From Candidatus Nomurabacteria bacterium (lineage in GTDB: Bacteria > Patescibacteriota > Minisyncoccia > Phycocordibacterales > UBA9973), in NCBI GenBank assembly GCA_023267215.1, contig JAHFNS010000001.1:174710-238709 (forward strand): a DNA stretch of 64,000 bases, read 5' to 3'. Position 1 is the stretch's first letter. Each line of letters starts with the position of its first letter. The position numbers and the translations under genes are program-made. Shown one piece after another: positions 14,086 to 50,675 of this stretch. The notes below the pieces were generated by a model that worked only from the letters and a program-made list of their open reading frames with translations, had not been told where the DNA came from and searched no databases.

Positions 14086-14123
14086 ATGTGGATAACTGCC
14101 CCTAAGCTGGGCTTAGGGGCACT
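14086..14123. repeat. DnaA-box-like TGTGGATAA followed by palindrome GCCCCTAAGC-TGG-GCTTAGGGGC (member of the CCTAAGC palindrome family)
   Basis: Perfect 10-bp stem; near-identical copy at 41006..41044 with an inverted loop; sits at the 3' end of Cys-rich paralog 1. Confidence 0.6.
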
Positions 14124-15834
14124 AATATATTTCTTGCTGATAACATCGTTCACAATAAACAATCTCTGATCTATCCGGTGCATATGTCGTTTCAAATTCA
14201 TTTTGACAACCTTCTTTCATACATTTTCTGTGCCAAAGTTTTAAAGGATTTCTCAAATTGATACGTTGATAATGTCGGCAGTTTGGACAAAGTCTCGGTA
14301 AAGGCAAATTCATTCTTTTGTAAAATTTTAATTCCTCTGGAAAAATTCTAAATGCTTCTGTGCATTGTTCTTTGCATTTACCAGCATGCTCACAAGCTAT
14401 AACTTTATTTATTATGTCATCTGTAATATCTTTAATACCATCTGGTATATCCGTGCATTCTATATCAATCTTATAATTTCTAATTTCTGCATCTTCCCAA
14501 TTATAACCTTTCTCAATTGCTTCTCTTTTGTCTAACGGAAAATATTCCTGAGCAATACTTTCATTATAAGCAAAAGGTGAAAGCTCGCTCGGGAAAAATT
14601 CTCCATATTTATATGTTCTTCCTTTTTTATCTACATATGGCATATCGTCCATATGTTTGATAATTTTAGGAATTAAATCTTCATACTCTTCTTTTGTGTA
14701 CTGTTTATTTAAAATACAGTATTGTTTTTTATATAGACCCTCACAACCAAAGATATTTAAACAATCATGACATTCTTCATTGTATCTTGAATCTTGATTT
14801 GAAAAATTTCTAATACCAAAAGCCCCGTTTGATCCACCAAAACCATGAGCAATCTCATAGAGAAGTTCCGCATTAAAGCCTTGAAATGAAGTATCATAAC
14901 TATCTTTGGTATTATTTCTGCTAAAAAATAGATACTTCGAATTTTCAGCTTGTCTAGAACTAAAAGAATTGTGGGTATTTCTAACTTCATATAAATCATC
15001 CCCATTAGAATTAATAGATTTGTATATATGGGCGTAGCGATGTGGTATTTTTAAATTGAGTTTTTTTAATTTTTCTAAATTATCAAGATGTATTTTATAA
15101 CTACCAATATTATTTGATTTAATAAATTCTTGATATTTTTCCTTTGTGTATTGCTGATTGAAAATATTATATTGTTTATTTACAAGTCCAACACAACCAA
15201 AACAATTCATACAATTTCTACAATCTAACAAATAATAACTATCAATACAATCTGTACAGTTATAACTAAAAAATAAAAGATTTGTTCGTGCGCATTCAAA
15301 AAGTTCATAACTAAATTGTATTTTTTCTGAAAAAGCTATATCTAAAGAATCTTGAGAATCAAAAATTTGATTACTAAAATAAACTCGTTCATTATTTATT
15401 CCACCAAATAAAAGATAGCATTCTTTAAGATCAAGACCATAATTACAATATTCGCTTGAAACAAAATTAGTCTGATATAAATTAGATCTTGGAACTTCTA
15501 ATTGTAATAATTGAAATTGACTAAAAAATGGAACAGAAAAATCATACTCACGACCATAATCTAATGGATTCCATTCATCAGAAAGCCAACAATCATGACA
15601 ATAAATTATATATAGTCTTTTTTTGCTATAAACACTAAGTATAGATTTTTTACATATAACACACTCATGTCTATAAAATACACGATTATTGCGAAATAAT
15701 AACCTTTTTTGAAATCGACAGTCCGGACAAAATGTTGGAGCTGGAACTTTTATTTTTTCGTAGAATTTAAAATCTTCGGGCTCTATAATGAAATCCTTCT
15801 TACAGTTTTGACAATTTTTTGTTTCAGAATTCAT
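14122..15834 (-). CDS. Cysteine-rich repeat protein, paralog 1 of 7 (uncharacterised family)
   Basis: 570 aa; N-terminal CQNCKKDFIIEPEDFKFYEKIKVPAPTFCPDCR; internal CxxCxxCFGCxxL modules followed by KxYCILNKQYTKEEY; PYVDKKGRTYKYGEFFPSELSPFAYNE block; C-terminal LCPNCRHYQRINLRNPLKLWHRKCMKEGCQNEFETTYAPDRSEIVYCERCY. Confidence 0.8.
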   Translation of the reverse strand: MNSETKNCQNCKKDFIIEPEDFKFYEKIKVPAPTFCPDCRFQKRLLFRNNRVFYRHECVICKKSILSVYSKKRLYIIYCHDCWLSDEWNPLDYGREYDFSVPFFSQFQLLQLEVPRSNLYQTNFVSSEYCNYGLDLKECYLLFGGINNERVYFSNQIFDSQDSLDIAFSEKIQFSYELFECARTNLLFFSYNCTDCIDSYYLLDCRNCMNCFGCVGLVNKQYNIFNQQYTKEKYQEFIKSNNIGSYKIHLDNLEKLKKLNLKIPHRYAHIYKSINSNGDDLYEVRNTHNSFSSRQAENSKYLFFSRNNTKDSYDTSFQGFNAELLYEIAHGFGGSNGAFGIRNFSNQDSRYNEECHDCLNIFGCEGLYKKQYCILNKQYTKEEYEDLIPKIIKHMDDMPYVDKKGRTYKYGEFFPSELSPFAYNESIAQEYFPLDKREAIEKGYNWEDAEIRNYKIDIECTDIPDGIKDITDDIINKVIACEHAGKCKEQCTEAFRIFPEELKFYKRMNLPLPRLCPNCRHYQRINLRNPLKLWHRKCMKEGCQNEFETTYAPDRSEIVYCERCYQQEIY

Positions 15835-15851
15835 GATTTATCTATTCTATA

Positions 15852-15874
15852 ATTCTATAGAATATTAGAATACT
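15852..15874. promoter_or_regulatory. Conserved upstream motif ATTCTATAGAAT-A-TTAGAATAC ahead of Cys-rich paralog 1
   Basis: Perfect 12-bp palindrome; the same motif recurs upstream of paralog 3 at 22208..22232. Confidence 0.4.
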
Positions 15875-16534
15875 TTAAATCCCCTCTTTTTTAAGTTCTT
15901 CTAGAAGTTCGCGGGCTTTTTTGGAAATTTTGTTTGGTATTCTAAAATTTATTTTTATATATAAATCACCTGCTTTTCCGTTTTTTATTGCCTCACCATA
16001 ACCTGTCATTTTGATAGTCTGTTTATTGTGAATACCAGCAGAAATTTTTATAATTACTTCTTTGTTTCCACTTACTACTATCTTTTTCTCTACACCTAAA
16101 ATAGAATCAATTAAAGAAATATATATATCCATCTGCATATCTCTTCCACGAGGAGTCCGCGTAAACCCCCCTCTACCTCCAGTGAAAAAATCACTGAATA
16201 TATCATTCAAATTTCCAAAATCAAAATCTACATTCCCACCTTGGAAACCTCCACCGAAACCAGAAAAATCAAAACCTTCAAAACCACCTTGTCTAGCTCC
16301 TCCATAACCACCTGCACCCATATTTTCAAAACCAGAGCCAAATTGGTCGTATTTTGCGCGTTTAGTGTCATCTGAAAGCACTTGGTAAGCTTCATTTACT
16401 TCTTTAAATTTTGCTTCATTCCCTTCTTTTTTGTCAGGATGATATTTGTGCGCCAACTTATAAAAAGCCTTCTTTATTTCGTCTTTGGAAGCACCTTTAT
16501 TTATACCTAAAACTTCATAATAATCCTTACTCAT
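15875..16534 (-). CDS. dnaJ: DnaJ-family co-chaperone: J domain, G/F region and short C-terminal domain, lacking the CxxCxGxG zinc finger
   Basis: 219 aa; [35 protein letters not shown] with the HPD motif; Gly/Phe-rich linker; no Cys repeats. Confidence 0.8.
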
Positions 16535-16541: not shown

Positions 16542-18038
16542 TTATATCATAGGTTCAGCTTCTACTGAAGTCTTGTTTTTTGTTCCAATCTCTGATGAAC
16601 TTTCTTCATTTTCTTCTCCTTCTTCTTTCTTTTTTCCCTTTCCTTCAATTATAGCTTTCTCTTCCGCACTTCGGATAATCGTCGCTTCTTCTTCAGCAAT
16701 TAATCTTGCAGCATCATCTTTCGAAATTGAATATTTTTCTCGAGAAGAAGCAATTATTTCTTCTCTACAAGAACGATGAGTGGGAGGCAAAACTCGTAAA
16801 GTTTCTGCTGAAAATGGATCGTAAGATTCTCCATCGATAGTCATCTTAACGAAAATTTCTCCGACAGCAAGATTGATCATATCTTTTACAGCAAATATCG
16901 GATCAAATTCTGGCTTCATTTTTACCGCATCTTCACCACCAACACGAAAAGTAATGAGACTACCACAATTACCGAGCACAGCTTGATGAACTTTCGGAAT
17001 AATTTGTCCGACATATTGATGCGCAATGGTTAAATTCAATCCGTATTTTCTAGCCTCTGATAAAATATTTTCAAAAGTTTGCGTAACAACATTTTGGAAC
17101 TCATCTACATATAGGTAAAAGTCTTTACGATCTCGCTCTGGTATGGCAGCTCGCTCCATTCCTGCTTGTTTTATTTTCGTCAAAAACATTGAACCCAAAA
17201 AGGAAGAGTTCTCTTCTCCCAAACGTCCTTTTGATAAATTAATAAGAATAATTTTTTCTTCATTCATTAATTTACTTATATCTATTTTATTTTGCTTCTG
17301 TCCAAAAATATTTCGGAGTAATGGATCAGAAAGAAACTGCCCGAGTTTGTTGACGAGTGGGATGATAGCGTCTGTATCAAATTTTTCAGACCAATCGGCA
17401 AATTCGATAGCGAAGAATCTTTTGACCATGTCGTCTGTAATATACTCGACAACTTTTTGTCTATAATTTCTATCAGTCAACATTGAGATCATTCCACGCA
17501 TCGTGGCATGAGGATAGTCTAAAAGCGCCAAACAAGTAAAACGAAAAACGTGCTCCAAACGTGGAGTCCAGTTTGCACCGAATTGTTTCTGAAAAACTTC
17601 GATCAAACCTTGAGTAAGTTGAAACTTAAAAGTTGGTTCAACATTTGCGAGCGGATTAAAGGACGCTGGAAAATCAACATCTGCTGGATCAATAATACAA
17701 ACATCCGCTACTCTTTCCTTAGGAATATAATCAAGTATTGCATCAATAACATCTCCGTGTGGGTCGATCAAACATAAACCATGTTTGTAAGTAATATCTT
17801 GCCGTAAAAAAAGTTCCAATAATTTTGTTTTTCCGACACCTGACTTTCCAATAATATATAAGTGTCTTCTTCTGTCTATTCGTTTAATACCAAAAATAAA
17901 TTTCTTCTCTTCTAAAGAAGCAACATAATTTGTACGTCCAAAAAAAGAAACCTCTTCCGGGTCAACCTTTCCAAAAACAGGAAGCTCTGGTGGTGGTGGA
18001 GCGTATTTGATTATTTGCACTCGATTTGGCTTCGGCAT
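16542..18038 (-). CDS. P-loop ATPase of the FtsK/HerA/VirD4 (TraD/TraG-like, 'T4SS DNA-binding domain') superfamily, paralog A
   Basis: 498 aa; Walker [11 protein letters not shown], Walker [14 protein letters not shown] motif; soluble (no TM segment); acidic/Lys-rich C-terminal tail. Confidence 0.75.
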
Positions 18039-18057
18039 ATTTGATTATTCTAGCATA

Positions 18058-18130
18058 AATCACCACCCCTTTCATCCCCTAGCCCATATTCACCTCACCC
18101 CTGCCCCTCTCCTTAGTGAAATAGAGGGGT
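18058..18130. repeat. GC-rich palindromic element, family 1 (CACCTCACCCCTGCCCCTCTCCTT...AGAGGGG), intergenic copy
   Basis: GC island in an AT-rich spacer between ATPase A and Cys-rich paralog 2; shares the CCCCTCTCCTT arm with the copies at 22441 and 26504. Confidence 0.6.
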
Positions 18131-18132
18131 TT

Positions 18133-19839
18133 TTAATATACCTCTTTATTATAACAACTCTTACAAAATATTTTTGGTGCTTCTTCTTTAGTGTAATGGG
18201 TTTTAAAATTAATACCACATTTGTCGCAATTTCTATCAACTTGTTTCATTTGAGAAACCCATATCTTTGCTTTTTCTTCTATTCTACAAAATGGACACTG
18301 TCTAGAAAGAGGCACATTTAATTTTTTTACTAAATCAAGTTCTTGTTTTGCTATTCTGTACCCTCTTGGACAAACACTGCATTTTATAATTTCTTTTAAA
18401 ATTTTGTCATCAGTATTTTTGATATTATCTGGAATTTCTGAAGAATCCAGTGTTATTGGATATTTTTCAAAAAAATGATTACGCCATTTCAATTTATATT
18501 CTTCGACTTCTTTTTCTGTTTTTGGAAATAAAAAGTTAGCATAAGAGTTATTATAAGCGTGTGGAGAAAATTCCATTGGGAAAAATTCTCCATATTTGTA
18601 GATATTTCCTTTTTTGTCTACATATGGCATTTTATTCATGTGTTCAATAATTTTTTCTTTCAATCTAAAATATTCTTCTTTTGTGTATTGTTTATTTAAA
18701 ATACAGTATTTTTTATTTCTTAAAGAGATACATCCAAAACAATCTGACCCTCCGACAACTGACTTACAATATTCTGCATCATTTAATCCCCACCCAGATT
18801 CATGGCTAAATTTAACATTAAATGGGTTCTCCCCGACTGTCACACATTCATAAATCAATTCAGCATTAAATCCCCAATCTACATAATCATAACTATCTTT
18901 CGTAGAGCCTTCTTTCATAAGCATAAGATATTTAGAATTTTCACAGTTTGTAACATCAAAACATTCTTGGCAATTTTTTGATCTAAAAACATAACTACCC
19001 GAAACATTTTTACTTTGAGTTGCCCATACTGGTTGAGGAATATTTTCTTTAAAATATTCCTGCGCTTTTTCTTTCCAATATTGATATTGTTTATATGAAC
19101 CTAAATCAATACTTTTCATTTTATTTTTATATTCCTCTTCAGAAAGTTTCTCACCCATAAATATATATGACCCATTTTTAACATTCACAGCACCCAAACA
19201 ATGATGCACCCCCTCGCAATCTCGAAGAAAGGCACTATCATAACAAAATCTATTATTACTCAAAGATCCTACAATATTAAAAGATTTAAAGAGGTTCGAG
19301 CAATCAAAACACTTTTCTGAATCAAAAACAACTGAACACATATATAAATCTTTATTTCTGGTTAGCCAAAAACTAGAGACACAATCTTCATTGTAATCCG
19401 AGTAATAAACTAAATATAAATTTTTTGAGTGAGCGACATGGTTAACATATGGAGAAGTTTTAATAGTCGCAAAATCGACATGTAAACTCAAAACAGGAGT
19501 TTTTTGCAAAAGTTCTCTCCATTGTTCCAAAAATGGTCTAGAAAAATCAATATTCATACCCATAACAAATGGATCCCAGTTATCACTCCACCAACATTTA
19601 ACACAGTAAACAGTAAAAGGCGTATTTGGTTCATACATAGAAAACCCTTCTTCTCCACAAAGATCACATTTCCGTTTAAATAAAGTAAAATTCGGCATCC
19701 AAATTAATCTTCTTTGTAATCGACAAGATGGGCAAAAAGTTGGTGGTGGAACTTTTATCTTTTCATAAAATCCAAAATCATCTGGCTCGATGATAAAGTC
19801 TTTTTTGCAATTTTTACATTGTCGCATTTCACTTTGCAT
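18133..19839 (-). CDS. Cysteine-rich repeat protein, paralog 2
   Basis: 568 aa; same N-terminal CKNCKKDFIIEPDDFGFYEKIKVPPPTFCPSCR and PYVDKKGNIYKYGEFFPMEFSPHAYN block; diverged C terminus. Confidence 0.8.
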   Translation of the reverse strand: MQSEMRQCKNCKKDFIIEPDDFGFYEKIKVPPPTFCPSCRLQRRLIWMPNFTLFKRKCDLCGEEGFSMYEPNTPFTVYCVKCWWSDNWDPFVMGMNIDFSRPFLEQWRELLQKTPVLSLHVDFATIKTSPYVNHVAHSKNLYLVYYSDYNEDCVSSFWLTRNKDLYMCSVVFDSEKCFDCSNLFKSFNIVGSLSNNRFCYDSAFLRDCEGVHHCLGAVNVKNGSYIFMGEKLSEEEYKNKMKSIDLGSYKQYQYWKEKAQEYFKENIPQPVWATQSKNVSGSYVFRSKNCQECFDVTNCENSKYLMLMKEGSTKDSYDYVDWGFNAELIYECVTVGENPFNVKFSHESGWGLNDAEYCKSVVGGSDCFGCISLRNKKYCILNKQYTKEEYFRLKEKIIEHMNKMPYVDKKGNIYKYGEFFPMEFSPHAYNNSYANFLFPKTEKEVEEYKLKWRNHFFEKYPITLDSSEIPDNIKNTDDKILKEIIKCSVCPRGYRIAKQELDLVKKLNVPLSRQCPFCRIEEKAKIWVSQMKQVDRNCDKCGINFKTHYTKEEAPKIFCKSCYNKEVY

Positions 19840-19842
19840 AAA

Positions 19843-20427
19843 TTATTTCTTAATAATTACAAAAGCTATGCCGTATTTAATGTTTACTTCTTTATATTCT
19901 ATATTTAATTCATCCAACTGTCTTTTCCATCTATTTAATGGAACAGCGAATTGTCCATTTGATAACAACTTCTCTTCTGTTTCATAATCCCCTTTATCCA
20001 TAACATGAATAGCAAATCCACCAGACCTGAGAGAATCATAAGAATTTTTTATTAGATCCCATTGTTTTTCAGTCTCTATAAATTTTAATAAAACATGAGC
20101 ATAAGTAATATCAAAAGGAGCGTTTGGTAAAGTTAAAGTACAGTCATGTTCTACAACATTTTCACCACCTAAAAGGTGATCAACTGTAATATCAAATGTT
20201 GTTATCAAAAGAGGCCTTGTGATAAATTCTTGAAAAATTTTCTCATGATAATATATAAATCTTTTATCTCCACAACCAAGCACTGCAATTTTTACTAAAT
20301 CACTTTTTGTTTCTAGTTTTACTTGCTTAAAAATAAGAAACAACTCGTCTCTTTTTTCTTTAACACGATTTTCAATTTCTTCGTCTGAATAACTTATGTA
20401 TTTTTTATGGTAATCACTTAATTGCAT
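19843..20427 (-). CDS. Small class I SAM-dependent methyltransferase-like protein
   Basis: 194 aa; motif I IAVLGCGDKRF, motif II-like PFDITYAHVLL, LRSGGFAIHV; 4 nt upstream of paralog 2, suggesting translational coupling. Confidence 0.55.
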   Translation of the reverse strand: MQLSDYHKKYISYSDEEIENRVKEKRDELFLIFKQVKLETKSDLVKIAVLGCGDKRFIYYHEKIFQEFITRPLLITTFDITVDHLLGGENVVEHDCTLTLPNAPFDITYAHVLLKFIETEKQWDLIKNSYDSLRSGGFAIHVMDKGDYETEEKLLSNGQFAVPLNRWKRQLDELNIEYKEVNIKYGIAFVIIKK

Positions 20428-20476
20428 ATTTTTATATTAAATTTAAATTGTTGATATAATTTTTTCTCCTAATTTT

Positions 20477-22201
20477 TTAATACACTTCAGCTTGATAACA
20501 ACGTTCACAATAAATTATCTCTTTTCTATCTGGTGCGTAAGAAGTCTCGAATTCATTTTGACAGCCTTCTTTCATGCATTTGCGATGCCAGAGCTTCATA
20601 GGGTTACGCTTCTTTAATCTAGCCTCATGCCTACAAAGAAAACACAGATGTTGTAATGGCACTCCTATCTTTCTATATAAATTCAATTCATCTGGTGTTA
20701 TTTTATAAGCTCCTCTACAATAATTACTTTCTTTGTCTTTATTCTCACAACCTATGACTTCTTTTGTTATAGAATCATCAACATCATCTAAGCTATCTGG
20801 AAGATCTTTAGCTTCTATTGTTATTTCATATTCATTTGCCTTTTTATCTCTCCATCTATAACCCATCTCTAACGCCTTCTGTTTTGTTATTGGAAAATAA
20901 TCTTGAGCTTGAGTCTCGTTATAACAAAATGTCGAAAGTTCTGCTGGAAAAAATTCTCCATATTTATATATTCTTCCTTTTTTGTCCACATACGGCATAT
21001 TCATCATGTGCTCTTTTATTTTGGAAATTAACTCTTCATATTTTTCTTTAGAATATTGTTTATTTAAAATACAGTATTTTTTATTTCGTAATCCAATACA
21101 ACCAAACAAATTTGAACATCCATGACAACTAATGGAATATTCAACATCACTAGAACTATAAACCACACTTGTAAAAAGATTACGATAATTCCCTATCCCA
21201 GTATCGAAACATTCATACACAAGCTCTGCAAACCCTATACCAGGACCAGAATCATAAGTATCTTTCACATTTTTTGCCAACCAATGAGAATTTTTTGTAT
21301 CTTCAACATTTCCACTAATATCAAAACAGGTTTTACAATTCTTTGCACCCTCTAGATTATCACCTGTCGAATTTACAGTTTTTATCTGAACGGCGAAACG
21401 GTGTATTGTTTTTAAACAAAATTCATCAAATTTATTTTTTTGCTCTATGACACTTTTATGTTTCTTAAGATTTAATTTTTCTAAGCGTGTGTTGTATTCT
21501 TCTCTCGTTAGTTGCTCATTCCACATACAGTATGATTTGTTGCGCAAGTTCGTACAACCAAAACAATTTGTACAACCCATACAATCATATAAAAAATATG
21601 AATCAACACAACTTTTACAATTGAAAGAATACAATAAATGATAACTATCAGCACATATCATATCTTCATAACAAAGTTCTGAACGATGTAATATATAAGA
21701 ATCTAAACACTCCCTAGTTTCTGAAATTCTATTTGAATAGAATGTTTTCTCAATTCTCCAAGAACCAGAAGACATATAGCTATCTTTACTTTCTTCTGCC
21801 ACATTACAATAATCACTATTCGTAGCATGTATATTTGAAAGACATTGTATAGGAACACGGTCTCTCAATTCTCTCCATTGTTCAAAAAAATTCTTAGAAA
21901 AATCATATTCCTTTCCATATGAAGTAGAATCCCATGCATCACTCCACCAATATTCTGAATCATATACACAAACTTTTTCTTCTGGAGAAATAAAAGAAAT
22001 TATCGTTTCACTATGATTTGGAGCATCACATTTTCTTCTAAAGAAAGACATTTCATTACGCCAACATAAACGCCGAATAGTCCGACATTCCGGACAAAAT
22101 GTAGGTGGCGGAACTTTTATCTTTTCATAAAAATGAAAATCTTCAGATTCTATCTTAAATTCTTGCTTACAATTTTGACATATTTTAATTTCTTCTTTCA
22201 T
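20477..22201 (-). CDS. Cysteine-rich repeat protein, paralog 3
   Basis: 574 aa; CQNCKQEFKIESEDFHFYEKIKVPPPTFCPECR N terminus; C-terminal KLWHRKCMKEGCQNEFETSYAPDRKEIIYCERCY. Confidence 0.8.
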   Translation of the reverse strand: MKEEIKICQNCKQEFKIESEDFHFYEKIKVPPPTFCPECRTIRRLCWRNEMSFFRRKCDAPNHSETIISFISPEEKVCVYDSEYWWSDAWDSTSYGKEYDFSKNFFEQWRELRDRVPIQCLSNIHATNSDYCNVAEESKDSYMSSGSWRIEKTFYSNRISETRECLDSYILHRSELCYEDMICADSYHLLYSFNCKSCVDSYFLYDCMGCTNCFGCTNLRNKSYCMWNEQLTREEYNTRLEKLNLKKHKSVIEQKNKFDEFCLKTIHRFAVQIKTVNSTGDNLEGAKNCKTCFDISGNVEDTKNSHWLAKNVKDTYDSGPGIGFAELVYECFDTGIGNYRNLFTSVVYSSSDVEYSISCHGCSNLFGCIGLRNKKYCILNKQYSKEKYEELISKIKEHMMNMPYVDKKGRIYKYGEFFPAELSTFCYNETQAQDYFPITKQKALEMGYRWRDKKANEYEITIEAKDLPDSLDDVDDSITKEVIGCENKDKESNYCRGAYKITPDELNLYRKIGVPLQHLCFLCRHEARLKKRNPMKLWHRKCMKEGCQNEFETSYAPDRKEIIYCERCYQAEVY

Positions 22202-22207
22202 TCTAAT

Positions 22208-22232
22208 ATTCTATAGAATTTTAGAATAGATA
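22208..22232. promoter_or_regulatory. Conserved upstream motif ATTCTATAGAAT-TT-TAGAATAGATAC ahead of paralog 3
   Basis: Same 12-bp palindrome plus TAGAATA as upstream of paralog 1. Confidence 0.4.
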
Positions 22233-24308
22233 CTATTCTAATACTTTTTTCAAAACATCTTCTGGTACTTCTTTAATTTCTTTTTTTTCTGTCACAATAT
22301 TTGCTGTATCTATTAAACTTTTTAATTTATCCATATCACTCCTACTTGCTGATTTATCTTTCAAGATATTTTTATGTTCAGGTTTTTCATTTTTTAATTC
22401 ACTCAGTGAAATTGCTGGAGGTTTAGGCACAACTATATTTCCCCTCTCCTTGGTAAGGAGAGGGTCAGGGTGAGGTAAATTTGTTTCATTCAACGCTTTA
22501 TCTAAAACTTCTTTTAATGCTGAATTATCTTTAGCTCCTAAAGGTTTTGATTTTATTTTAAATGGTTCAAAAGAAGGTTTTTTACTGAAAACTTTTTTAA
22601 TAGTTGAAAATATTTTAGGAGAAACAGGTGCTACTTTTTTAATTGGTGCAATATTTTTAATTGGAACAGCTTTACCAAATTCATAACACACAGGTTTATC
22701 TTCTCTGTATCTATCTTCTCCTTCTTTCACATCTATCTCTTCGTTTGTTATATCCTTGTTCTGAAATTCTATTCCTAAATCTGCCAATGGTTTATAAAAT
22801 TTTGTTTCATCTTGTTTTATTTGTTTCATTGAACCAGCCACTGGTTTCAATTCTCCTGCTTTTATTTTAGAGATGCAATCTTTACAATAAACAGCTCGGC
22901 CTGGTTCTGGTTTAAAAGGCACTAACGTATCTTTTTTACAAATAGAACAAACTGCCGGAAATTTCTCCATACTACCTATATCACTTTCGTTACCAAGAGA
23001 CATCCCGCTCCAATTATTAATTTCTCTTTCCACTACTTCTCTTGGTCGACAATAAAGTTCTCGAGAAGTCTTAATAACTTCATCTTCAATATCTTTGTTA
23101 CCAGATTTTACCATCGGCGGAAGAGTTTTAGCAGAAAATGGACGCGAAGAAACACCATCTATCATTAATTTCAAATAAATTTTGTAATTTGGCAAACTGA
23201 CAATATCTTGAGGGGTAAATTCTGGTTCAAATTCTTTTTCTAAAAATTCTGCATCATCTGCACCAACCCTAAAAATCATCATCGTGCCAACGTTACCAAA
23301 AATAGAATCTCTCACACTTGAATTTTTATCTGAAATTAATTGAGCAGTGTATTGATGTGCCACGGTCAAATTTAATCTATATTTTCTAGCCTCGGACAAG
23401 ATACCAGCAAAAGCCTCCGTCACGAAATTTTGAAATTCATCTACATAAAGATAAAAATCTTTTCTATCATCTTCTGGAATACGCACACGTTCCATTGCAG
23501 CCAATTGAATCTTAGTAATTATCATCCCTCCTAAGAGTGCGGAGTTGTCTTCACCGATACGCCCTTTGGAAACATTCACTAAAAAAATTTTCCCTTCATT
23601 CATTATGTCAAAAACATTTATGGTGCTTATGGATTGTCCGACTATATTTCGAATAATAGAAGTGGAAAGAAATTGTCCGACTTTGTTTTGAATAGGTGCA
23701 ATAGCTTCATTTCTAAATTTCTCTTGCCAGGCTTCATATTCATGAACCCAAAAAGCTTTAATGACTGGATCTTTTAAATTCGAAATTATTTTTTGACGAT
23801 AATCTTTATCCACCAACATTCGAGGTATACCTAATAGTGTCGAACCTGGAGTATCAAGCAAAGCTAAAATAGTATTATTTAAAATATATTCCATACGGGC
23901 AGACCAAGCATTTGCCCAAATTTTCGTAAAGATACCCATCAATCCAGAAGCCACTAAATGTTTATACTTTGGATCAACAAGTTCAAGTACATTGAAACCA
24001 ATATGAAAATCTGCATCGGCTGGATTAAAATAAATAACATCTTTCATGCGGTGTGGCGGAATGGCAGAAAGAATGGCTTCCACATTTTCTCCGTGCGGGT
24101 CAACCATACAAACGCCGTCACCATTTTCAATGTTCTGAATGATCATATTAAACATCAAAGCAGATTTACCAGTACCAGACTTTCCAAGAATATAAACATG
24201 CTGACGCCTGTCTTTGCGCTTGATACCAAAAAGCTGGTTTTTATCCCTGTAAGTAGTGTAACCAATATAAGTAAGTTCTTTATTTTTAGGTATTTCCTTC
24301 AGGTCCAT
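22233..24308 (-). CDS. P-loop ATPase of the FtsK/HerA/VirD4 superfamily, paralog B, with a C-terminal CxxC...CxxC zinc-ribbon extension
   Basis: 691 aa; Walker A ILGKSGTGKS, Walker [13 protein letters not shown]; about 45% identical to paralog A over the ATPase core; C-terminal CSICKKDTLVPFKPEPGRAVYCKDC; contains an in-frame GC-rich element at 22441..22476. Confidence 0.75.
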   Translation of the reverse strand: MDLKEIPKNKELTYIGYTTYRDKNQLFGIKRKDRRQHVYILGKSGTGKSALMFNMIIQNIENGDGVCMVDPHGENVEAILSAIPPHRMKDVIYFNPADADFHIGFNVLELVDPKYKHLVASGLMGIFTKIWANAWSARMEYILNNTILALLDTPGSTLLGIPRMLVDKDYRQKIISNLKDPVIKAFWVHEYEAWQEKFRNEAIAPIQNKVGQFLSTSIIRNIVGQSISTINVFDIMNEGKIFLVNVSKGRIGEDNSALLGGMIITKIQLAAMERVRIPEDDRKDFYLYVDEFQNFVTEAFAGILSEARKYRLNLTVAHQYTAQLISDKNSSVRDSIFGNVGTMMIFRVGADDAEFLEKEFEPEFTPQDIVSLPNYKIYLKLMIDGVSSRPFSAKTLPPMVKSGNKDIEDEVIKTSRELYCRPREVVEREINNWSGMSLGNESDIGSMEKFPAVCSICKKDTLVPFKPEPGRAVYCKDCISKIKAGELKPVAGSMKQIKQDETKFYKPLADLGIEFQNKDITNEEIDVKEGEDRYREDKPVCYEFGKAVPIKNIAPIKKVAPVSPKIFSTIKKVFSKKPSFEPFKIKSKPLGAKDNSALKEVLDKALNETNLPHPDPLLTKERGNIVVPKPPAISLSELKNEKPEHKNILKDKSASRSDMDKLKSLIDTANIVTEKKEIKEVPEDVLKKVLE
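22441..22476. repeat. GC-rich palindromic element, family 1 (CCCCTCTCCTTGGTAAGGAGAGGGTCAGGGTGAGGT), inside the CDS in frame
   Basis: Perfect 11-bp inverted repeat; encodes PDPLLTKERG in ATPase B. Confidence 0.6.
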
Positions 24309-24357: not shown

Positions 24358-24393
24358 AAAAAAAAGACGGAAGCCTTGCTTCCGTCTTTTTTT
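24358..24393 (-). terminator. Intrinsic terminator downstream of dnaK (GACGGAAGC-CTT-GCTTCCGTC plus T-run)
   Basis: 9-bp perfect stem flanked by A-run and T-run (bidirectional). Confidence 0.7.
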
Positions 24394-24394: not shown

Positions 24395-26317
24395 TTATTT
24401 TGTTTCCCCTTCAGGTTTTTCGCCTGCCTTATCGGCGGGTGAATTTTCTTTGTATTCCGCATCGTGGACTTCGGGATTTTGTTCTTCAGGAGCACTTGCA
24501 GGAGGAGTCTCAGCGCCAGCTTTATTCATAGCCTCACCGATTTTGGACATCTCAGCAGAAAGCTCTTCTGTTGCTTTCTTTATCGCTTCAACATCCGTTC
24601 CGTCTTTCACTCCACGAAGTGTAGTGATTTTCGTATTCACATTTTCTTTCACATCCGCAGGAATTTTTGCTTCATTATCTTTCAATGCTTTTTCAGCAGT
24701 GTAGATAATCATTTCTGCAGTATTTTTGATATCAACAATTTCTCTTTTCTTTTTATCTTCTTCAGCATGAAGCTCTGCATCTTGTTGCATTTTTTTAATA
24801 TCTTCTTCTTTGAGACCAGAACTTGCTTCAATCTTGATTGATTGAGCTTTACCTGAAGCTTTATCTTTCGCAGTCACGTTCAAGATTCCATTTACATCAA
24901 TATCAAATATAACTTCCACTTGTGGTATGCCACGTGGTGCTGGCGGAATTCCATCTAGAATAAAGCGTCCGAGTGATTTATTATCAGAGGCCATTGGGCG
25001 TTCTCCTTGGACAATATGAATCTCCACAGAAGTCTGATTATCAGCAGCAGTTGAAAACACTTGAGATTTTGAAGCTGGAATAGTCGTATTTCTATCAATC
25101 AATTTTGTACCCACTCCTCCTAATGTTTCAATACCTAAAGATAAAGGTATAACATCTAAAAGCAAAACATCTCGCACATCTCCTGCTAAAACGCCTGCTT
25201 GCACAGCAGCACCAAGAGCCACAACTTCATCTGGATTGATAGACATATTTGGCATTTTACCAAAAAGATTTTTCACTGCTTCCACAATCATTGGCATTCT
25301 AGTTTGTCCACCAACCATTATAATTTCATTTATTTCACCCATTTTAAATGGAGAAGCTTCTAAGGCTCTTTTAGTTATTTCAATTGACCTATCAACATAT
25401 TCTTTTGCTAAAGATTCCAAAGTTGCACGAGACATTTTCAAAAGTAAATGTTTTGGTCCACCAGCATCAGAAGTGATAAATGGGATATTTATTTCTGCTT
25501 CCATTGTGGTAGAAAGTTCGTGTTTTGCTTTTTCTGCTGCTTCTTTCAATCTTTGATGAGCAAGAGGGTCTTTGCGAACATCGATACCTGATTCCTTTTT
25601 ATACTCTTCAGCAATCCAAGAAATGATTTTTCTATCAATATCTCCTCCACCCATGTGCGAGTCACCATCTGTAGACTTCACTTCTATCACATCATCTCCA
25701 ATTTCAAGCACAGATACGTCGAAAGTTCCTCCACCGAAGTCATAAACAACTATTTTTTCATTTTTCTTTTTATTAAATCCATAAGCAAGTGCAGCAGCAG
25801 TTGGTTCATTGATGATTCTTTTGACATCAAGCCCTGCTATTTGTCCTGCATCTTTCGTTGCTTTTCTTTGTGCATCATTAAAATAAGCAGGCACAGTGAT
25901 GACAGCTTCTGTAATTTTTTCTCCAAGCTTTGCTTCTACATCTGTTTTTATTTTCTGCAAAATCATCGCAGAAATTTCTTCTGGACGATAAAACTTATCA
26001 GACATTTTTACTTTTACTCCACCATCTTCTCCAGTCTCAATTTTAAACGGAGCAGTTCCTTTATCTTTCTGTACTTCTGGATCATCAAATCTGTGACCCA
26101 TGTATCTTTTTATTTCAGAAATTGTATTTTCCGGATTTGTGACTGCTTGTCTTTTTGCAAGAAGCCCAACGATACGGTCACCATTCTTTGCTGTCGCGAC
26201 GACAGAAGGAGTGGTGCGATTGCCCTCCACATTTTCAATAATTTTTGGCACGCCTCCTTCAATGAAAGCGACTGCCGAATTTGTTGTACCTAAATCTATA
26301 CCTATTATTTTTGACAT
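24395..26317 (-). CDS. dnaK: Chaperone DnaK (Hsp70)
   Basis: 640 aa; [21 protein letters not shown] and VGGQTRMP Hsp70 signatures. Confidence 0.97.
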
Positions 26318-28990: not shown

Positions 28991-30706
28991 TTAGTATATC
29001 TCTTTTTTATAACATTCACTACAAATGACTTTTTTAGGGCCACCCTCTGACTCCGATCTATATGTCGTATCTATTTCTTTTTTACATAAAAAACACGATC
29101 TCCTATTTAATCTCATTGGATTACGAAGTTTTAATCTTCTATTGTGTCGTTCATCTGGATGGACAGACGGCAAAGGTAAATCAAATCTTCTATAAAAATT
29201 TAATTCTTGTTCTATTATTTTGAAAGGCCTGCCAGTAACTTCACATTCAATGACCTCATTTAAAATTGAATCATCTACTTCAGAAATTGTTTGTGGTAAA
29301 TCTTTACCTTTTATTGTAACTTTATAAGAACCAGAAATATACTCACGCCAAAGATATCCTTTTTCTTCTGCTATTTTTTCACTAATTGGAAAATAATCTT
29401 GAGCAACAGTTTCATTATAGGCAAATGGCGAAAGTTCAGATGGAAAAAATTCACCAAACTTATATATTTTCCCCTCTTTATCTACATATGGCATATCTAG
29501 CATATGCTGTTTGATTTTTGGAAGCAAATTTTCATATTCCTCTTTCGTATATTGTTTATTTAAAATACAATATTTTTTTCTATTCATTTCTGTGCAACCA
29601 AAACAATCCTGACAGTTATTCATCATAAAACTATAATAGATATCCCTAGAATACCAAATAATGGCACCTAAAAAACATCTACTGTTGTAAACACCAATAC
29701 TTATGCCTTCGTAAGTTAATTCTGAATTACCTCCAGATCCAGGGCCTACATCATAGGCATCACTACATCCTTGACTACCCCAATTTGCATATTTTACATT
29801 TTGAAATTCACCATCTAAATCAAAAACGTTATAACAATTGCGTGAATTATATACGTGATCACCAACAACATTTGTCGTGTTTATAAGTTTTACATCTCTG
29901 TGTAAAGCTTCCTGCCAAAGTTTTTTAAATTTATTTCTAGCTTCTTCTATGCCATGACGTGTATCAAGAGCAAGCGCATCTTTCTTTTTCAAATATTCTT
30001 CTTTTGTATATTGAATATTCTCAATACAATAATTTTTGTTTCTCAAATTTGTGCACAAAACACAATCCGAACAATTTCTACAGTCATATAGGAAATAAGA
30101 ATCCAAACATCCTTCACTTTCTAGTGAAAAAAATAATCGACTAGAATCTCGGCAATATACATTTTCATATCCAAATTCCATATCATAACAAATATAAGAA
30201 TCTTGAATAAATTTACATCTAGAGACCCTGTTGCAATATAAAGAATCCTCACAATTCCAAGCTGCAGTAATTAAATAACAATTTTTTAGTTCTACACTTA
30301 CATTACAAAATCTAGAATTTACCGACTTTGAATCGGATAAGGCAAGATGTGGTACTTCCTCTATAAGATTAGCAAATTGCTCAAAAAATGGCTTAGAAAA
30401 ATCATAATCTCTGCCATGGGAAGATGAATCCCATCGATCGCTCCACCACATTTCCTTATCATAAGTTTTTACCTTAGCATCAGGATGAAAAACTGAAATA
30501 ATTAAATCTTTTTTACCCTCTTCTGCATTTGGTCTCTTAAAAAGTGAATGTTCATTACGCCAAACAAGCCGACGAATAAGTCTACACTCCGGACACCAAG
30601 TCGGCGGAGGGACTTTTATTTTTTCATAAAATTTAAAATCTTCCGGTTCTATCATGAAGTTTTGTTTACAATTCTGACATATTCTTTTTTCTTGTTTATA
30701 TTCCAT
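28991..30706 (-). CDS. Cysteine-rich repeat protein, paralog 4
   Basis: 571 aa; MEYKQEKRICQNCKQNFMIEPEDFKFYEKIKVPPPTWCPECR; C-terminal ribbon partly degenerate (SVHPDERHNRR in place of CPNCRHYQR). Confidence 0.8.
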   Translation of the reverse strand: MEYKQEKRICQNCKQNFMIEPEDFKFYEKIKVPPPTWCPECRLIRRLVWRNEHSLFKRPNAEEGKKDLIISVFHPDAKVKTYDKEMWWSDRWDSSSHGRDYDFSKPFFEQFANLIEEVPHLALSDSKSVNSRFCNVSVELKNCYLITAAWNCEDSLYCNRVSRCKFIQDSYICYDMEFGYENVYCRDSSRLFFSLESEGCLDSYFLYDCRNCSDCVLCTNLRNKNYCIENIQYTKEEYLKKKDALALDTRHGIEEARNKFKKLWQEALHRDVKLINTTNVVGDHVYNSRNCYNVFDLDGEFQNVKYANWGSQGCSDAYDVGPGSGGNSELTYEGISIGVYNSRCFLGAIIWYSRDIYYSFMMNNCQDCFGCTEMNRKKYCILNKQYTKEEYENLLPKIKQHMLDMPYVDKEGKIYKFGEFFPSELSPFAYNETVAQDYFPISEKIAEEKGYLWREYISGSYKVTIKGKDLPQTISEVDDSILNEVIECEVTGRPFKIIEQELNFYRRFDLPLPSVHPDERHNRRLKLRNPMRLNRRSCFLCKKEIDTTYRSESEGGPKKVICSECYKKEIY

Positions 30707-30840: not shown

Positions 30841-32622
30841 TCATACAAATTCAGCTTGATAACATTTCTCACAATATACTATTTCCTTCCTTTCGTCACT
30901 TATAGCTGTCTCAAATTCATTCTGGCAAGGACTATTATCATGTGTATGTTTTATGGTATTTTTATATACACCATCTTTTGATTCTACACCATTACACATA
31001 CATTTTCTATGCCATAATTTCGGTGGATTTTTCTTTTTTGTACGTTGTATGTATCTACAATTAGGACATAAATGCGGTAAGGTTATATTTATTTGTCTGT
31101 GAAATTGTAGCTCATTAGGCAATATACGGAAAGCCTCTGTACATTGTTCATTACATTCTCCTTTATGTTCACATTCTATTACTTCGTTTAAAATCGAATC
31201 TTCTACATCTTTAATATCATCTGGTAAATCTTCAGCTTTTAAAGTAACTCTATAATTTCTTTCTTTTTCTTCATGCCATTTAAATCCTTTTTCTAGAGCT
31301 TCTTCTTTACTTAAAGGAAAATATTTATGAGCCCATGTTTCATTGTAAGAGAATAAAGAAAGATCACTCGGAAAATGCTCCCCATATTTATATATCTTTC
31401 CACAACTATCTATATGTGGCATATCCATCATATGCTGTTTGATTTTAGGAATTAATTCCTCATATTCCTCTTTAGTATATTGTTTATTTAAAATGCAATA
31501 TTTTTTATTTTTTAGATTTGTGCAACCAAAACAATTTGAACAATTATATATTTTATTAGAATATTCAATATCTTTAGAGTCATAACAGGCACGGCTAAAA
31601 AAACAACGTTGAGAATGCATCCCTCCGGTATTTTCATAATAAAGTTCTGTATTACCACCACATAAAATGGCATCATAACTATCTTTCATTAAAAGACCAG
31701 CCATAAAAATAAACTTGCTGTTTTCAACCCCCATACGTGTAGCAAAACAAAATTGACAATTTTTAGTATTTCTAAGATCGTCCCCAGTTACATTTACAGA
31801 ATTAGTTATTAAAGCAAATCGTCTTGGAATTTTATAATAAAAATCCCAGAATTTTTCTTCTATTTTTTTTAAAGTACCATAACTACTTAAATTCCAATTT
31901 TTGATTTCTTTTTCATATTCTTCTTTTGTATATTTCTTGTTAAAGATACAATATTTTTGATTTCTCAAATTTACACAACCAAAACAGTTCGAACATCCAA
32001 TACAATTTAAAAGAAATGCGGAATCCATACATTCATCTGAAAAATAAACAAATTTAGTGTTATAAACCCCATTTGAGTCTAAAGTTTCATATATGTGGTC
32101 ACCATTTATTATAAAATCAGAATCCATAGAATCACGAACAAAACCAGGGGTTTGACAGTTATAACAATTAATTGATTCATAGCCATCAAATGTCAGCATG
32201 CAATTTTTACAACGGATATTCCCATTACAATAACCAAGATCAGAGGAGTTTTTAGATCCCGTCGCTTGATTTGGTACAACTTTTTGCAATTCATAAAATT
32301 GTTCTAAAAATGGCTTTGAAAAATCATATTCCCTACCATATTCTATTCCATCCCAAGAATCTCCATGCCAACATGAAATACAATAAACCTTAAATGGAGA
32401 ATTTTCATTATAAATACTTATAATTTCTTTATTACAATTTTCACATTTATCCTTATAGAGAGATCTATCTTCACGATAAGCAAGACGTCTTATCATTCTA
32501 CACTCCGGACACCAAGTCGGTGAAGGTACTTTTATCTTTTCATAAAAATTAAAATCTTCCGGCTCTATTGTGAAGTCTTTTTTGCAATTCTGACATATTC
32601 TTTTTTCTTGTTTATATTCCAT
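30841..32622 (-). CDS. Cysteine-rich repeat protein, paralog 5
   Basis: 593 aa; same N terminus as paralog 4; C-terminal CEHKGECNEQCTEAFRILPNELQFHRQINITLPHLCPNCR with a 20-aa insertion. Confidence 0.8.
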   Translation of the reverse strand: MEYKQEKRICQNCKKDFTIEPEDFNFYEKIKVPSPTWCPECRMIRRLAYREDRSLYKDKCENCNKEIISIYNENSPFKVYCISCWHGDSWDGIEYGREYDFSKPFLEQFYELQKVVPNQATGSKNSSDLGYCNGNIRCKNCMLTFDGYESINCYNCQTPGFVRDSMDSDFIINGDHIYETLDSNGVYNTKFVYFSDECMDSAFLLNCIGCSNCFGCVNLRNQKYCIFNKKYTKEEYEKEIKNWNLSSYGTLKKIEEKFWDFYYKIPRRFALITNSVNVTGDDLRNTKNCQFCFATRMGVENSKFIFMAGLLMKDSYDAILCGGNTELYYENTGGMHSQRCFFSRACYDSKDIEYSNKIYNCSNCFGCTNLKNKKYCILNKQYTKEEYEELIPKIKQHMMDMPHIDSCGKIYKYGEHFPSDLSLFSYNETWAHKYFPLSKEEALEKGFKWHEEKERNYRVTLKAEDLPDDIKDVEDSILNEVIECEHKGECNEQCTEAFRILPNELQFHRQINITLPHLCPNCRYIQRTKKKNPPKLWHRKCMCNGVESKDGVYKNTIKHTHDNSPCQNEFETAISDERKEIVYCEKCYQAEFV

Positions 32623-39297: not shown

Positions 39298-39300
39298 AAA

Positions 39301-50632: not shown

Positions 50633-50675
50633 ACCCCTAAGCTCCGCTTAGGGGTTCCAGAAGCCCAGCTTATTT
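50633..50675. repeat. CCCCTAAGC-TCCG-CTTAGGGG palindrome plus an AGAAGCCCAGCTTA fragment (CCTAAGC family)
   Basis: Perfect 9-bp stem; the adjacent half-copy matches the arms of the 39254 and 41021 copies. Confidence 0.55.

Follow-up and report, generated by a model that had tools for sequence, protein, structure and literature searches.

Two paralogous coupling-protein-like ATPases of CPR bacteria, one of a type that recurs beside tandem cysteine-rich zinc-ribbon genes

The locus described here belongs to an ultra-small bacterium of the CPR and lies in a 64-kb window (the whole stretch of DNA that was analyzed), and all of its genes are encoded on the minus strand. In the direction of transcription, it comprises ATPase B (22233..24308, 691 aa), cysteine-rich (Cys-rich) paralog 3 (20477..22201, 574 aa, 36 Cys), an ORF of 194 aa (19843..20427), Cys-rich paralog 2 (18133..19839, 568 aa), ATPase A (16542..18038, 498 aa), dnaJ (15875..16534), and Cys-rich paralog 1 (14122..15834, 570 aa), separated by gaps of 3 to 94 nt. 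These coordinates, the strand, and the gene order agree with the initial annotation of this DNA. That annotation also had a Cys-rich gene following each ATPase, which holds for B and paralog 3 and not for A, which is followed by dnaJ. The block lies inside a grpE-dnaK-dnaJ chaperone operon, with dnaK at 24395..26317 (minus strand). The short DnaJ (219 aa) has a J domain, a G/F region, and part of the CTD, lacks the zinc-finger domain, and is a neighbor through operon context only; the order dnaK-B-(Cys)n-A-dnaJ is kept only in a close Nomurabacteria-like lineage. A consensus scan placed a palindromic terminator-like stem-loop between dnaK and ATPase B (24359..24393) and a promoter-like site at 24345-24317, suggesting that a separate transcription unit begins at B. 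A 33-nt palindromic element lies immediately upstream of the paralog 3 start (22200..22232), and a second copy is found upstream of paralog 1 (15839-15871). Instead of the three Cys-rich paralogs originally reported, the window contains seven. The additional genes, all on the minus strand, are paralog 4 (28991..30706, 571 aa), paralog 5 (30841..32622, 593 aa), paralog 6 (32665..34335, 556 aa), which is directly downstream of grpE, and paralog 7 (39301..41004, 567 aa), which is 15 kb from the nearest ATPase; thus, four of the seven are not adjacent to an ATPase. The orthologous position of paralog 6 is conserved in loci L006, L014, L089, and L103. A scan of the 52 larger ORFs in the window, all housekeeping, detected no tra or vir gene, and no relaxase, oriT-like, or replication gene was found near the ATPases. 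A conventional conjugative T4SS nearby, which the initial annotation had named as grounds for abandoning its proposal of a novel module, was not found.

ATPases A and B were 46% identical over 428 aligned residues. In the translations, Walker A reads GKSGVGKT in A and ILGKSGTGKS in B, and both proteins contain the Walker B sequence LYVDEFQN and a T(I/V)AHQ motif. The Walker A and B residues were invariant in the ATPase alignment, as expected of the P-loop NTPase of a coupling protein (T4CP). No TM segment was found in either protein (maximum Kyte-Doolittle 19-residue scores of 1.27 for A and 1.13 for B). The paralogy, motifs, and lack of TM segments read from the letters alone were all borne out, as was the T4CP type of both ATPases, which fall on the VirD4/TraD side of the FtsK-HerA superfamily. 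Both exceeded, weakly, the Pfam gathering scores of TrwB_AAD_bind (PF10412; 28.5 bits for A and 39.1 for B, cut-off 20.5), T4SS-DNA_transf (PF02534; 22.6 and 29.6 bits, cut-off 20.1), TraG-D_C (PF12696; 25.4 and 26.1 bits, cut-off 22), and the HerA central domain DUF87 (23.4 and 34.3 bits against 23.2, i.e., barely at the threshold). FtsK_SpoIIIE gave no match in Pfam, and the scores for HerA equivalogs were far under their cut-offs. The same was true of the NCBIfam equivalog models TraD and CD1115, so T4CP membership is at the superfamily level only. Assignment to VirB4 by sequence model was rejected, with 17 bits against a cut-off of 643 for TIGR00929 and 28 against 325 for CD1110 (NCBIfam); the ATPase half scored better against VirD4/TraD models.

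The two ATPases carry different tails. In ATPase B, a zinc finger of the form CxxC-x17-CxxC (aa 448-481) corresponds to PF23477 (zf_Tbcl_2) and TIGR04272 (E 3e-11 and 4e-12, respectively; 43-50 bits for PF23477, cut-off 27) and is accompanied by a long K/E/P-rich tail, as the C-terminal ribbon and Lys/Glu-rich tail noted previously had indicated. This finger is present in every B-clade member across CPR. In ATPase A, the linker PPPPELP at the N-terminus and the tail EAEPMI at the C-terminus are both conserved, and the C-terminus E-x-P-[LMI]-[IV] is common to A and to fused proteins of Peregrini- and Gracilibacteria. The orthologues of A are 84-92% identical, a conservation equal to that of DnaK.

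The N-terminal TM anchor of a T4CP does not occur in the same polypeptide here; the anchor is a separate protein, C (49295..50590, minus strand, 431 aa), the detached N-terminal half of the ATPase, encoded ∼25 kb from the ATPase genes in this genome. C has one N-terminal TM helix and, in a model of moderate confidence (pLDDT 65), a cytoplasmic fold that may resemble the N-terminal domain of VirB4, and it ends in the linker ELATLWHFP…PPTNLP. In other CPR lineages, C is either fused to the ATPase (L043-L054, L062, and L074) or encoded immediately upstream of the ATPase gene. C and B together are colinear with the fused protein of L062 (39% over 924 columns), and C and A with that of L045 (38% over 807 columns). 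A single PHROG profile, phrog_5156 (824 positions), was matched by C at positions 76-194 and by A/B at 375-818 (B at 375-807, E 7e-63). Thus, the initial description of a soluble translocase does not stand, because the conserved half that provides the membrane anchor is a separate gene here and part of the ATPase polypeptide in other lineages. In 27 of 80 loci, the gene immediately upstream of C encodes f3 (in the window, 50674..51702, minus strand, 342 aa), a DNA-binding protein with Sigma70_r4 and HARE-HTH domains, and the gene order f3-C-(f11)-ATPase is recurrent across CPR. At the level of sequence, these alignments show that A and B are paralogs, each the motor half of a coupling-protein (T4CP/VirB4-like) ATPase of conjugative origin that is split between genes. 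The B-type, with its zinc-finger tail, is the CPR-wide form. The A-type, with a …EPLI-COOH tail, is a second form in Paceibacteria; in Peregrini-, Gracili-, and Abawacabacteria, the A-type is fused to C.

The 194-aa ORF had been presented as a SAM-dependent methyltransferase and a member of the module. It matched no methyltransferase, family, or structure in Pfam, NCBIfam, or the PDB, and the only trace was phrog_4752 (tRNA MTase; E 0.0098 over 44 aa). The stretches VLGCGDKRF and LRSGGFAIHV resemble MTase motif I and post-III, but they are degenerate, and the assignment to class I SAM-dependent methyltransferases was not supported. The ORF forms a singleton cluster with no homolog in any of 159 related loci, and so does not belong to the module; it is a lineage-specific insertion outside the conserved system.

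The Cys-rich proteins belong to a family of ∼570 aa that comprises ∼5,000 clusters at 50% identity and has no Pfam family and no fold relative. They contain 31-36 cysteines and several predicted zinc sites. Structure prediction (AF2 model of paralog 3: pLDDT 84, pTM 0.86) placed a β-solenoid specific to each paralog between zinc-ribbon ends that are conserved. All paralogs have similar termini and a similar stretch at residues 361-440, whereas column identity in the solenoid is 0.45-0.5 between paralogs against 0.70-0.82 among orthologues. The termini are predicted treble-clef zinc ribbons beside basic CRxxRR / RNPxKLWxRKC stretches, and no DNA-binding fold was detected in the solenoid. Against zf_Tbcl_2 (cut-off 27 bits), the C-terminus from L051 scored 27.5 bits, that from L045 24.8, and that of paralog 3 in the window 17.7, so a domain shared with B is supported for the family and is marginal for the window copies. 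We note that the zf_Tbcl_2 domain is both small and promiscuous. Members of the Cys-rich family are essentially missing from phage records and from 2.9 million viral contigs.

The distribution of these genes around ATPases was analyzed in related loci across CPR. Cys-rich genes occurred in 37 of the 57 A-containing loci and in none of the 23 B-only loci (Fisher p = 2e-8; this value carries no phylogeny correction, and the loci are phylogenetically non-independent). In A-type loci of at least 15 kb, 24 of 30 had Cys-rich genes, and 18 of 30 had one within 1.5 kb. Most of these genes (164 of 179) were on the same strand as the nearest ATPase, and their share of bases was 24-29% up to 6 kb from the ATPase and 15-17% between 6 and 10 kb. 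Loci L117, L119, L120, L134, and L150 share the gene order f3-C-B-[Cys x 1-5]-A, and in Peregrini-, Gracili-, and Abawacabacteria the C-A fusion proteins lie beside one to six or more Cys-rich genes, with the other neighbors unrelated. The linkage spans two CPR classes with differing other neighbors and holds in Paceibacteria and in the three groups just named, and the ATPase/Cys-rich association first seen here recurs well outside this genome. However, an ATPase was present in only 8 of 19 Cys-centered loci of at least 15 kb, and 7 of those 19 were singletons; with roughly half of the long Cys-centered loci free of an ATPase, the link is not obligate. The initial annotation had held that finding the two gene types widely apart would make their adjacency coincidental; this was half the case, for the B-only loci and for about half of the Cys-centered loci. 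One-to-one pairing of ATPase and paralog was contradicted by the copy number between B and A, which ranged from 0 to 5 among relatives: B directly adjoins A in L003, L008, L011, and L014, and L012 likewise has no Cys-rich gene between the two. These results show that the A-type is the form around which tandem Cys-rich arrays cluster.

We tentatively favor, with nearly an even chance of being correct, the explanation that the ATPases form a T4CP-derived, T4SS-unlinked split membrane machine whose clients are the Cys-rich proteins. C would tether hexameric rings of A and/or B to the membrane, and the Cys-rich proteins would be either cargo of the motor or adaptors that choose it. Docking may involve their conserved parts, namely, the treble-clef zinc ribbon at the N-terminus, the core at 360-440, and the CxxC-x17-CxxC finger at the C-terminus, the last of which appears to be of the same domain family as the finger in the B tail, and the paralog-specific solenoid faces may give each paralog a separate specificity. 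The machine would run without a linked T4SS channel, and the 194-aa ORF, dnaK, and dnaJ would be neighbors and not components. Two observations were counted in favor of this client or adaptor role: the paralogs differ mainly in a solenoid that orthologues conserve, with the ends in common, and zf_Tbcl_2 occurs both in family C-termini (27.5 bits) and in the B tail (50 bits). Against the explanation stand the ATPase-free and singleton Cys-centered loci, the four window paralogs away from an ATPase, the relatives in which B directly adjoins A, the promiscuity of the small zf_Tbcl_2 domain, and the reported non-essentiality of the Southlakia T4CP homologue (PMC12102498). Moreover, as zinc-ribbon proteins without signal peptides, the Cys-rich proteins are apparently cytoplasmic and look like a poor fit for unfolded export. 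In a stronger version, which we consider unlikely, the A-type ATPase anchored by C would drive a CPR-specific protein-translocation pathway lacking a T4SS channel, and the ∼570-aa proteins would be its dedicated exported or surface-delivered host-interaction substrates, each with a different binding face and recognized through the zinc-ribbon ends. If true, a split coupling protein would here have given rise to a new secretion-like system.

The adjacency might also carry no functional link, if the Cys-rich family acts independently and expands in tandem and if the ATPase region, the B-A interval above all, is a hotspot that readily tolerates duplications and insertions. The variable B-A copy number, the many singletons and ATPase-free Cys-centered loci, the window paralogs located after grpE, after dnaJ, and near rpsM, and the stable orthologous positions, which would allow a separate function for each paralog, all agree with this view. 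We nevertheless judge it rather improbable, given that the adjacency recurs in four lineages despite differing other neighbors, that Cys-rich genes occur in many A-containing loci and in no B-only locus (37/57 against 0/23), that the strand bias is strong, and that the very short intergenic gaps are consistent with co-transcription. Alternatively, the C-anchored ATPase may retain the ancestral T4CP function and pump DNA, in uptake, export, or segregation, with f3 and the Cys-rich proteins as nucleic-acid-binding accessories that present DNA in a relaxosome-like manner. The T4CP ancestry, the DNA-binding domains of f3 encoded before C, the treble-clef ribbons beside basic stretches, and the same finger type in B point this way; but relaxase, oriT-like, and replication genes were not found nearby, the solenoid shows no DNA-binding fold, f3 may be a plain transcription factor, and the need for seven or more paralogs with distinct solenoids is left unexplained, which makes this reading doubtful.

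Two further proposals fared worse. One, which takes up the initial annotation's "maturation machine," has the ATPases work with the Hsp70 system so that the Cys-rich proteins are folded, supplied with metal, or assembled. We consider it quite improbable: ∼17 close relatives keep the order grpE-(Cys)-PaaX-dnaK-B-(Cys)n-A-dnaJ-(Cys), and the abundant cysteines and predicted zinc sites are suggestive, but the chaperone linkage is seen only in a single shallow lineage. In other lineages, the ATPases lie next to secDF-f3-C or different genes, and Cys-rich arrays occur with the ATPase and without chaperones; in the window, a terminator-like hairpin lies between dnaK and B. An anti-phage or conflict system, in which a HerA/FtsK-type ATPase acts with a diversified sensor or effector family, is very improbable. 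Such a system would fit the multi-copy, divergent, copy-number-variable Cys-rich family and the weak PADLOC matches that A and B gave with the mad8 and HerA models (E 1e-10 to 1e-15). Against it, A is a syntenic core gene as conserved as DnaK, PADLOC gave no match for the Cys-rich proteins or the 194-aa ORF, the arms-race signature is absent in that the "variable" solenoid is conserved among orthologues, and the family is essentially missing from viral and phage sequences.

Returning to the split machine with Cys-rich clients, the A-type ATPase beside tandem Cys-rich arrays points to an uncharacterized membrane machine. A recent study (Quiñonero-Coronel et al., 2025; PMC12102498) counted 5,713 VirD4-type homologues in 2,918 genomes of Patescibacteria, found just 148 of these homologues near virB4, and stated that "exaptation … cannot be ruled out." A and B are almost certainly the same proteins as these "orphan" T4CP homologues, which they resemble in numbering about two per genome and in rarely lying near virB4; the portions of that paper available say nothing of a split architecture, of C, of A/B subtypes, or of Cys-rich neighbors. 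The role of the orphans is acknowledged there as a question. Our results assign them a defined architecture, in which motor and membrane halves are separate, two subtypes can be told apart by their tails, and an HTH protein is a partner, together with a candidate client family of ∼5,000 sequence clusters without any annotation. The question can thereby be framed as pairwise hypotheses for testing in heterologous systems or in cultivable members of the Paceibacteria or Gracilibacteria. Should the Cys-rich proteins prove to be cargo, the largest uncultured bacterial radiation would have a new route of host interaction.

The closest annotated homolog is an 812-aa T4CP of an Embleya plasmid (L161; 32% identity, E 6e-56), encoded in a monoderm T4SS locus with PrgI, a VirB4-like ATPase, a relaxase-like gene, and NlpC/P60. 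Like monoderm T4CPs (VirD4/TraD/TrwB), the proteins described here have a Walker A/B P-loop motor, the T4SS-DNA_transf, TrwB_AAD_bind, and TraG-D_C domains, and a membrane-anchored N-terminal region of ∼400 aa, supplied by C; the Embleya protein also has a similar linker, ELAxLxHLP…PPxxxP, before the ATPase. Unlike them, they are encoded by two genes 25 kb apart, are duplicated into A and B subtypes with distinct tails, and form a syntenic chromosomal core accompanied by Cys-rich arrays and not part of a mobile element, with no relaxase, VirB4, VirB6, or other T4SS gene nearby; linkage to a relaxase or a T4SS channel (VirB4, VirB6, VirB8…), as expected of a T4CP, was thus not found. They differ from VirB4/TrwK (PDB 7o42) in the VirB4 model score (17 bits against 643) and in having no VirB3, VirB6, or VirB8 neighbor. 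In type VII secretion, the FtsK-like ATPase EssC/EccC is also accompanied by adjacent paralogous substrate arrays, but it has three P-loop domains in place of the one found here, where no WXG100 or LXG-like substrate or other T7SS component was present. The predicted solenoid of the Cys-rich proteins, with its regularly spaced Cys, resembles the cysteine-ladder β-solenoids of the Tenebrio antifreeze protein (1ezg) and curli CsgA (8c50), and the terminal CxxC…CxxC ribbons predicted in these proteins resemble treble-clef zinc ribbons (PF13451 and PF23477).

All of the genes initially annotated at this locus were present on the minus strand at the coordinates first given, including those of the paralogous P-loop ATPases A (16542–18038) and B (22233–24308). 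The initial annotation counted three Cys-rich paralogs, whereas a BLASTP search of all window ORFs identified seven, with mutual identities of 30–53%: Cys1 (14122–15834), Cys2 (18133–19839), Cys3 (20477–22201), Cys4 (28991–30706), Cys5 (30841–32622), Cys6 (32665–34335), and Cys7 (39301–41004). The ATPase/Cys-rich block lies inside a chaperone operon. After grpE (34304–34900) come three Cys-rich genes, followed by an ABC exporter gene and a divergent PaaX-like regulator; then dnaK, B, Cys3, a 194-aa ORF, Cys2, and A; and lastly a short dnaJ, Cys1, and the gene of a membrane protein. Between dnaK and B, a consensus scan predicted both a palindrome resembling a terminator and a site resembling a promoter. 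The remaining window genes are housekeeping genes (ribosomal proteins, rpoA, aminoacyl-tRNA synthetases, dnaB, clpB, infB, and others), and no tra or vir genes were found in the 64 kb. The PaaX-like regulator (26417–26974, plus strand), which has a PaaX_M Cas2-like domain and is divergent from dnaK, keeps its position in relatives; hrcA is the usual bacterial gene at this position. The DnaJ (15875–16534) is of the short type (219 aa), in which the J domain, the G/F region, and part of the CTD are present and the CxxCxGxG zinc-finger domain is missing; a ~217-aa or ~361-aa form is encoded at the equivalent position in related genomes. Two unannotated genes of 436 and 400 aa adjoin Cys7 (41044–43566), the latter with weak matches to FtsA and Ppx-GppA (actin-like ATPases), and the same pair adjoins a Cys-rich gene in the comparison loci L089 and L098.

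ATPases A (498 aa) and B (691 aa) are 46% identical across 428 residues (BLASTP). As initially annotated, both have intact Walker A and B motifs and T(I/V)AHQ, and neither has a TM segment. Both exceed, weakly, the Pfam gathering scores of TrwB_AAD_bind, T4SS-DNA_transf, TraG-D_C, and DUF87, and a PDB sequence search with A returned TrwB alone (E = 0.1). A locus search of contigs from one genome per species gave at least 592 relatives, every one of them in CPR/Patescibacteria, and two subtypes were distinguished. The tail of B contains a CxxC-x17-CxxC treble-clef finger (PF23477/TIGR04272) followed by a long charged stretch, and this finger occurs in every B-clade protein, single-ATPase lineages included. 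It is absent from all A-clade proteins and from the fused proteins of Peregrini- and Gracilibacteria described below, which instead end in E-x-P-[LMI]-[IV]-COOH; the fused clade neighbors the A clade in a rough neighbor-joining tree. This common tail looks like a candidate docking peptide. The A orthologues are 84–92% identical, a level of conservation equal to that of DnaK in the same loci (81–89%). The N-terminal peptide of A (residues 1–25) and its C-terminal EAEPMI (493–498) are near-invariant in the A-type proteins of loci L001–L056. The best non-CPR match of B was a 395-aa motor-only protein (39% identity, E = 2e-89) on the Sulfitobacter mediterraneus plasmid NZ_CP081110.1 (99994–101181); on this alphaproteobacterial plasmid, recombinase and transposase genes surround it, and T4SS genes are absent nearby.

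Although the initial annotation described these ATPases as soluble, they are not orphan soluble proteins: their membrane half, C, is encoded separately in this genome and is fused to the ATPase elsewhere in CPR. ORF clustering on 80 retained loci revealed a cassette, secD-secF-f3-C-(f11)-ATPase, that recurs across CPR, in which f3 is a Sigma70_r4 and HARE-HTH protein and C is a protein of ~440 aa with a single N-terminal TM helix. Both are present in the window (f3, 50674–51702; C, 49295–50590). Fusions with C at the N-terminus were found in Peregrini-, Gracili-, and Abawacabacteria (733–761 aa), in one Berkelbacteria locus (838 and 941 aa), and in locus L074 (1053 aa). When concatenated, the window C and B are colinear with the fused protein of L062 (39% over 924 columns), and C and A with that of L045 (38% over 807 columns). 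A single 824-position PHROG profile spans both halves, with C at 76–194 and A/B at 375–818. The nearest annotated non-CPR relative is an 812-aa type IV coupling protein (T4CP) of an Embleya plasmid type IV secretion system (T4SS) locus, which also encodes PrgI, a VirB4-like ATPase, a replication-relaxation protein, and NlpC/P60. The colinear fusions, the single profile, and the relationship to the Embleya T4CP thus show that a T4CP/VirB4-like protein has been split and that A and B represent its motor halves. The Embleya T4CP has an ELAxLxHLP…PPxxxP linker in common with the end of C; in hhalign, the C profile matched only this 50-aa linker motif of the Embleya N-terminus (2% probability), and the motif was later confirmed within a long BLAST alignment. 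The ATPase genes of this genome have been relocated from the f3-C neighborhood to the dnaK operon. The ancestral neighborhood f3-C-…-MnmA-…-AlaRS is retained at 43591–51702, and in loci L077 and L072 the ATPase is located between C and MnmA. The alternative that C is a third ATPase paralog was discarded: C lacks a P-loop, and it clusters with the ATPases only via the fused homologues.

The proposed pairing of ATPases with Cys-rich genes held in part. In the ATPase-centered set, Cys-rich genes occurred in 37 of the 57 A-containing loci; in those of ≥ 15 kb, they were present in 24/30, and within 1.5 kb in 18/30. In contrast, they occurred in none of the 23 B-only loci at a coverage of ≥ 40% (Fisher p = 2e-8, with loci treated as independent despite shared ancestry), apart from a single incomplete copy at the end of a contig, downstream of a B-type ATPase (L073). 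Most Cys-rich genes (164/179) lie on the same strand as the nearest ATPase, and their density decreases from 24–29% of bases within 6 kb of the ATPase to 15–17% at 6–10 kb. The association was seen in Paceibacteria and in Peregrini-, Gracili-, and Abawacabacteria, where the other neighbors differ. The order f3-C-B-[Cys × 1–5]-A-[Cys…] was found in five Cys-centered metagenome loci (L117, L119, L120, L134, and L150). Overall, zero to five Cys-rich genes separate B from A; the two are directly adjacent in L003, L008, L011, and L014, and L012 likewise has no intervening Cys-rich gene. Among the Cys-centered loci of ≥ 15 kb, 8/19 contained an ATPase and 7/19 were singletons.

The Cys-rich proteins (5.4–6.3% Cys) have no family assignment, no Pfam domain was found in any member, and their source annotation is “hypothetical.” When 1.84 billion representatives were searched with a profile, 4,967 clusters (50% identity) had E ≤ 1e-3, and for 2,187 of them E was ≤ 1e-30; the best 150 clusters are all 444–612 aa, nearly all full-length, and of a single architecture without fusions. 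Two members with 57–70% identity, P0240 and P0181, are labeled “Nanobdellota archaeon” and “Burkholderiales bacterium,” and are probably mis-binned CPR contigs. The AlphaFold model (pLDDT 84, pTM 0.86) predicts an N-terminal zinc ribbon and helices, a lower-confidence β-solenoid core, and a well-predicted C-terminal region with additional CxxC pairs. Among the cysteines, C8/C11/C36/C39, C207/C213, C368/C377, C485/C495, and C542/C547/C565/C568 are conserved, and C520/C523 are invariant across orthologues. The C-terminal 35 residues resemble zf_Tbcl_2, a domain also present in the tail of B (27.5 and 24.8 bits in Peregrinibacterial members; 17.7 bits in Cys3). Column identity in the solenoid is ~0.45–0.5 among paralogs vs. 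0.70–0.82 among orthologues, and the termini and residues 361–440 are conserved among paralogs. Since the solenoid varies among paralogs and is kept in orthologues, this sequence pattern points to a shared scaffold on which each paralog keeps a stable specificity of its own, and not to arms-race hypervariability. A transposon-like nature of these genes was rejected, because the intergenic gaps are 3–94 nt and there are no terminal repeats; the repeats that were detected represent gene-internal paralogy or small hairpins.

The 194-aa ORF (19843–20427), initially annotated as a methyltransferase of the module, lies outside the conserved system. It had no match in Pfam, NCBIfam, PDB (sequence search), or phage records (tblastn), formed a singleton cluster, and had no homologs among 159 related loci; a degenerate motif I/post-III pattern discernible on visual inspection and a weak PHROG match to a tRNA MTase (E = 0.0098) are its only methyltransferase traces.

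Several palindromic elements were also observed. A 33-nt element, ATTCTAATATTCTATAGAATnnTAGAATAGATA, occurs at 15839–15871 and 22200–22232, directly 5′ of the Cys1 and Cys3 start codons, the copies being 97% complementary to each other; its core, TTCTATAGAA, has no other occurrence in the window. For this element, a role as an operator or as a translational-control hairpin common to the two paralogs is conceivable. A 23-nt perfect palindrome, CCCTCTCCTTG(G/A)TAAGGAGAGGG, is found within ATPase B (22442–22464), within the PaaX-like gene (26518–26540), and in an intergenic region (~18106). In both of these unrelated coding sequences it is in frame and encodes PLL(T/D)KERG, a peptide missing from all orthologues in the 80 loci, and in L010 and L127 it is intergenic; it resembles the in-frame palindromic insertions of Rickettsia (RPEs). 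GC-rich hairpins, CCCCTAAGC-N4-6-GCTTAGGGG, follow Cys1 (14092–14126), flank Cys7 (39255–39303 and 41013–41047), and precede gene C (~50635), and a second type (…ATATCAGC…GCGTATAT…) occupies other intergenic spacers near Cys4–Cys6. Both types may be terminators or REP-like elements.

Our overall reading, which we hold tentatively, is that of a split T4CP-like membrane ATPase with Cys-rich clients. C would tether hexamers of A and/or B to the membrane, and the Cys-rich proteins would be its clients, either as cargo or as adaptors, and would dock by their conserved ends, their solenoid faces possibly providing paralog-specific specificity. The Cys-rich arrays cluster statistically, across classes, around A-type ATPases, and the link is not obligate; a duplication hotspot without a functional link is possible, if rather unlikely. 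It is unlikely that the locus encodes a DNA-handling machine in which the zinc-ribbon proteins are nucleic-acid adaptors.

We consider a chaperone-linked maturation module improbable; the dnaK/dnaJ context is limited to a close Nomurabacteria-like lineage. A tblastn search of phage records with one Cys-rich paralog gave zero matches, and a viral-contig scan for the family gave a single marginal match at a contig end; by these searches, the family appears essentially absent from viral data, and a defense system is the least probable explanation, with very little chance of being correct.

In the literature searched, no description of the Cys-rich family or of PF26449 was found, nor any mention of the split architecture, the partner C with a predicted VirB4-like fold, the diagnostic A and B tails, or the Cys-rich association. 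Together, these results bring an open question of CPR biology within direct reach of testing. The ATPases themselves are already in the literature as “orphan T4CP homologues.” A previous survey reported 5,713 VirD4-type homologues across 2,918 Patescibacteria genomes, 148 of them near virB4 (PMC12102498), and our finding of split motor halves agrees with and extends this observation.
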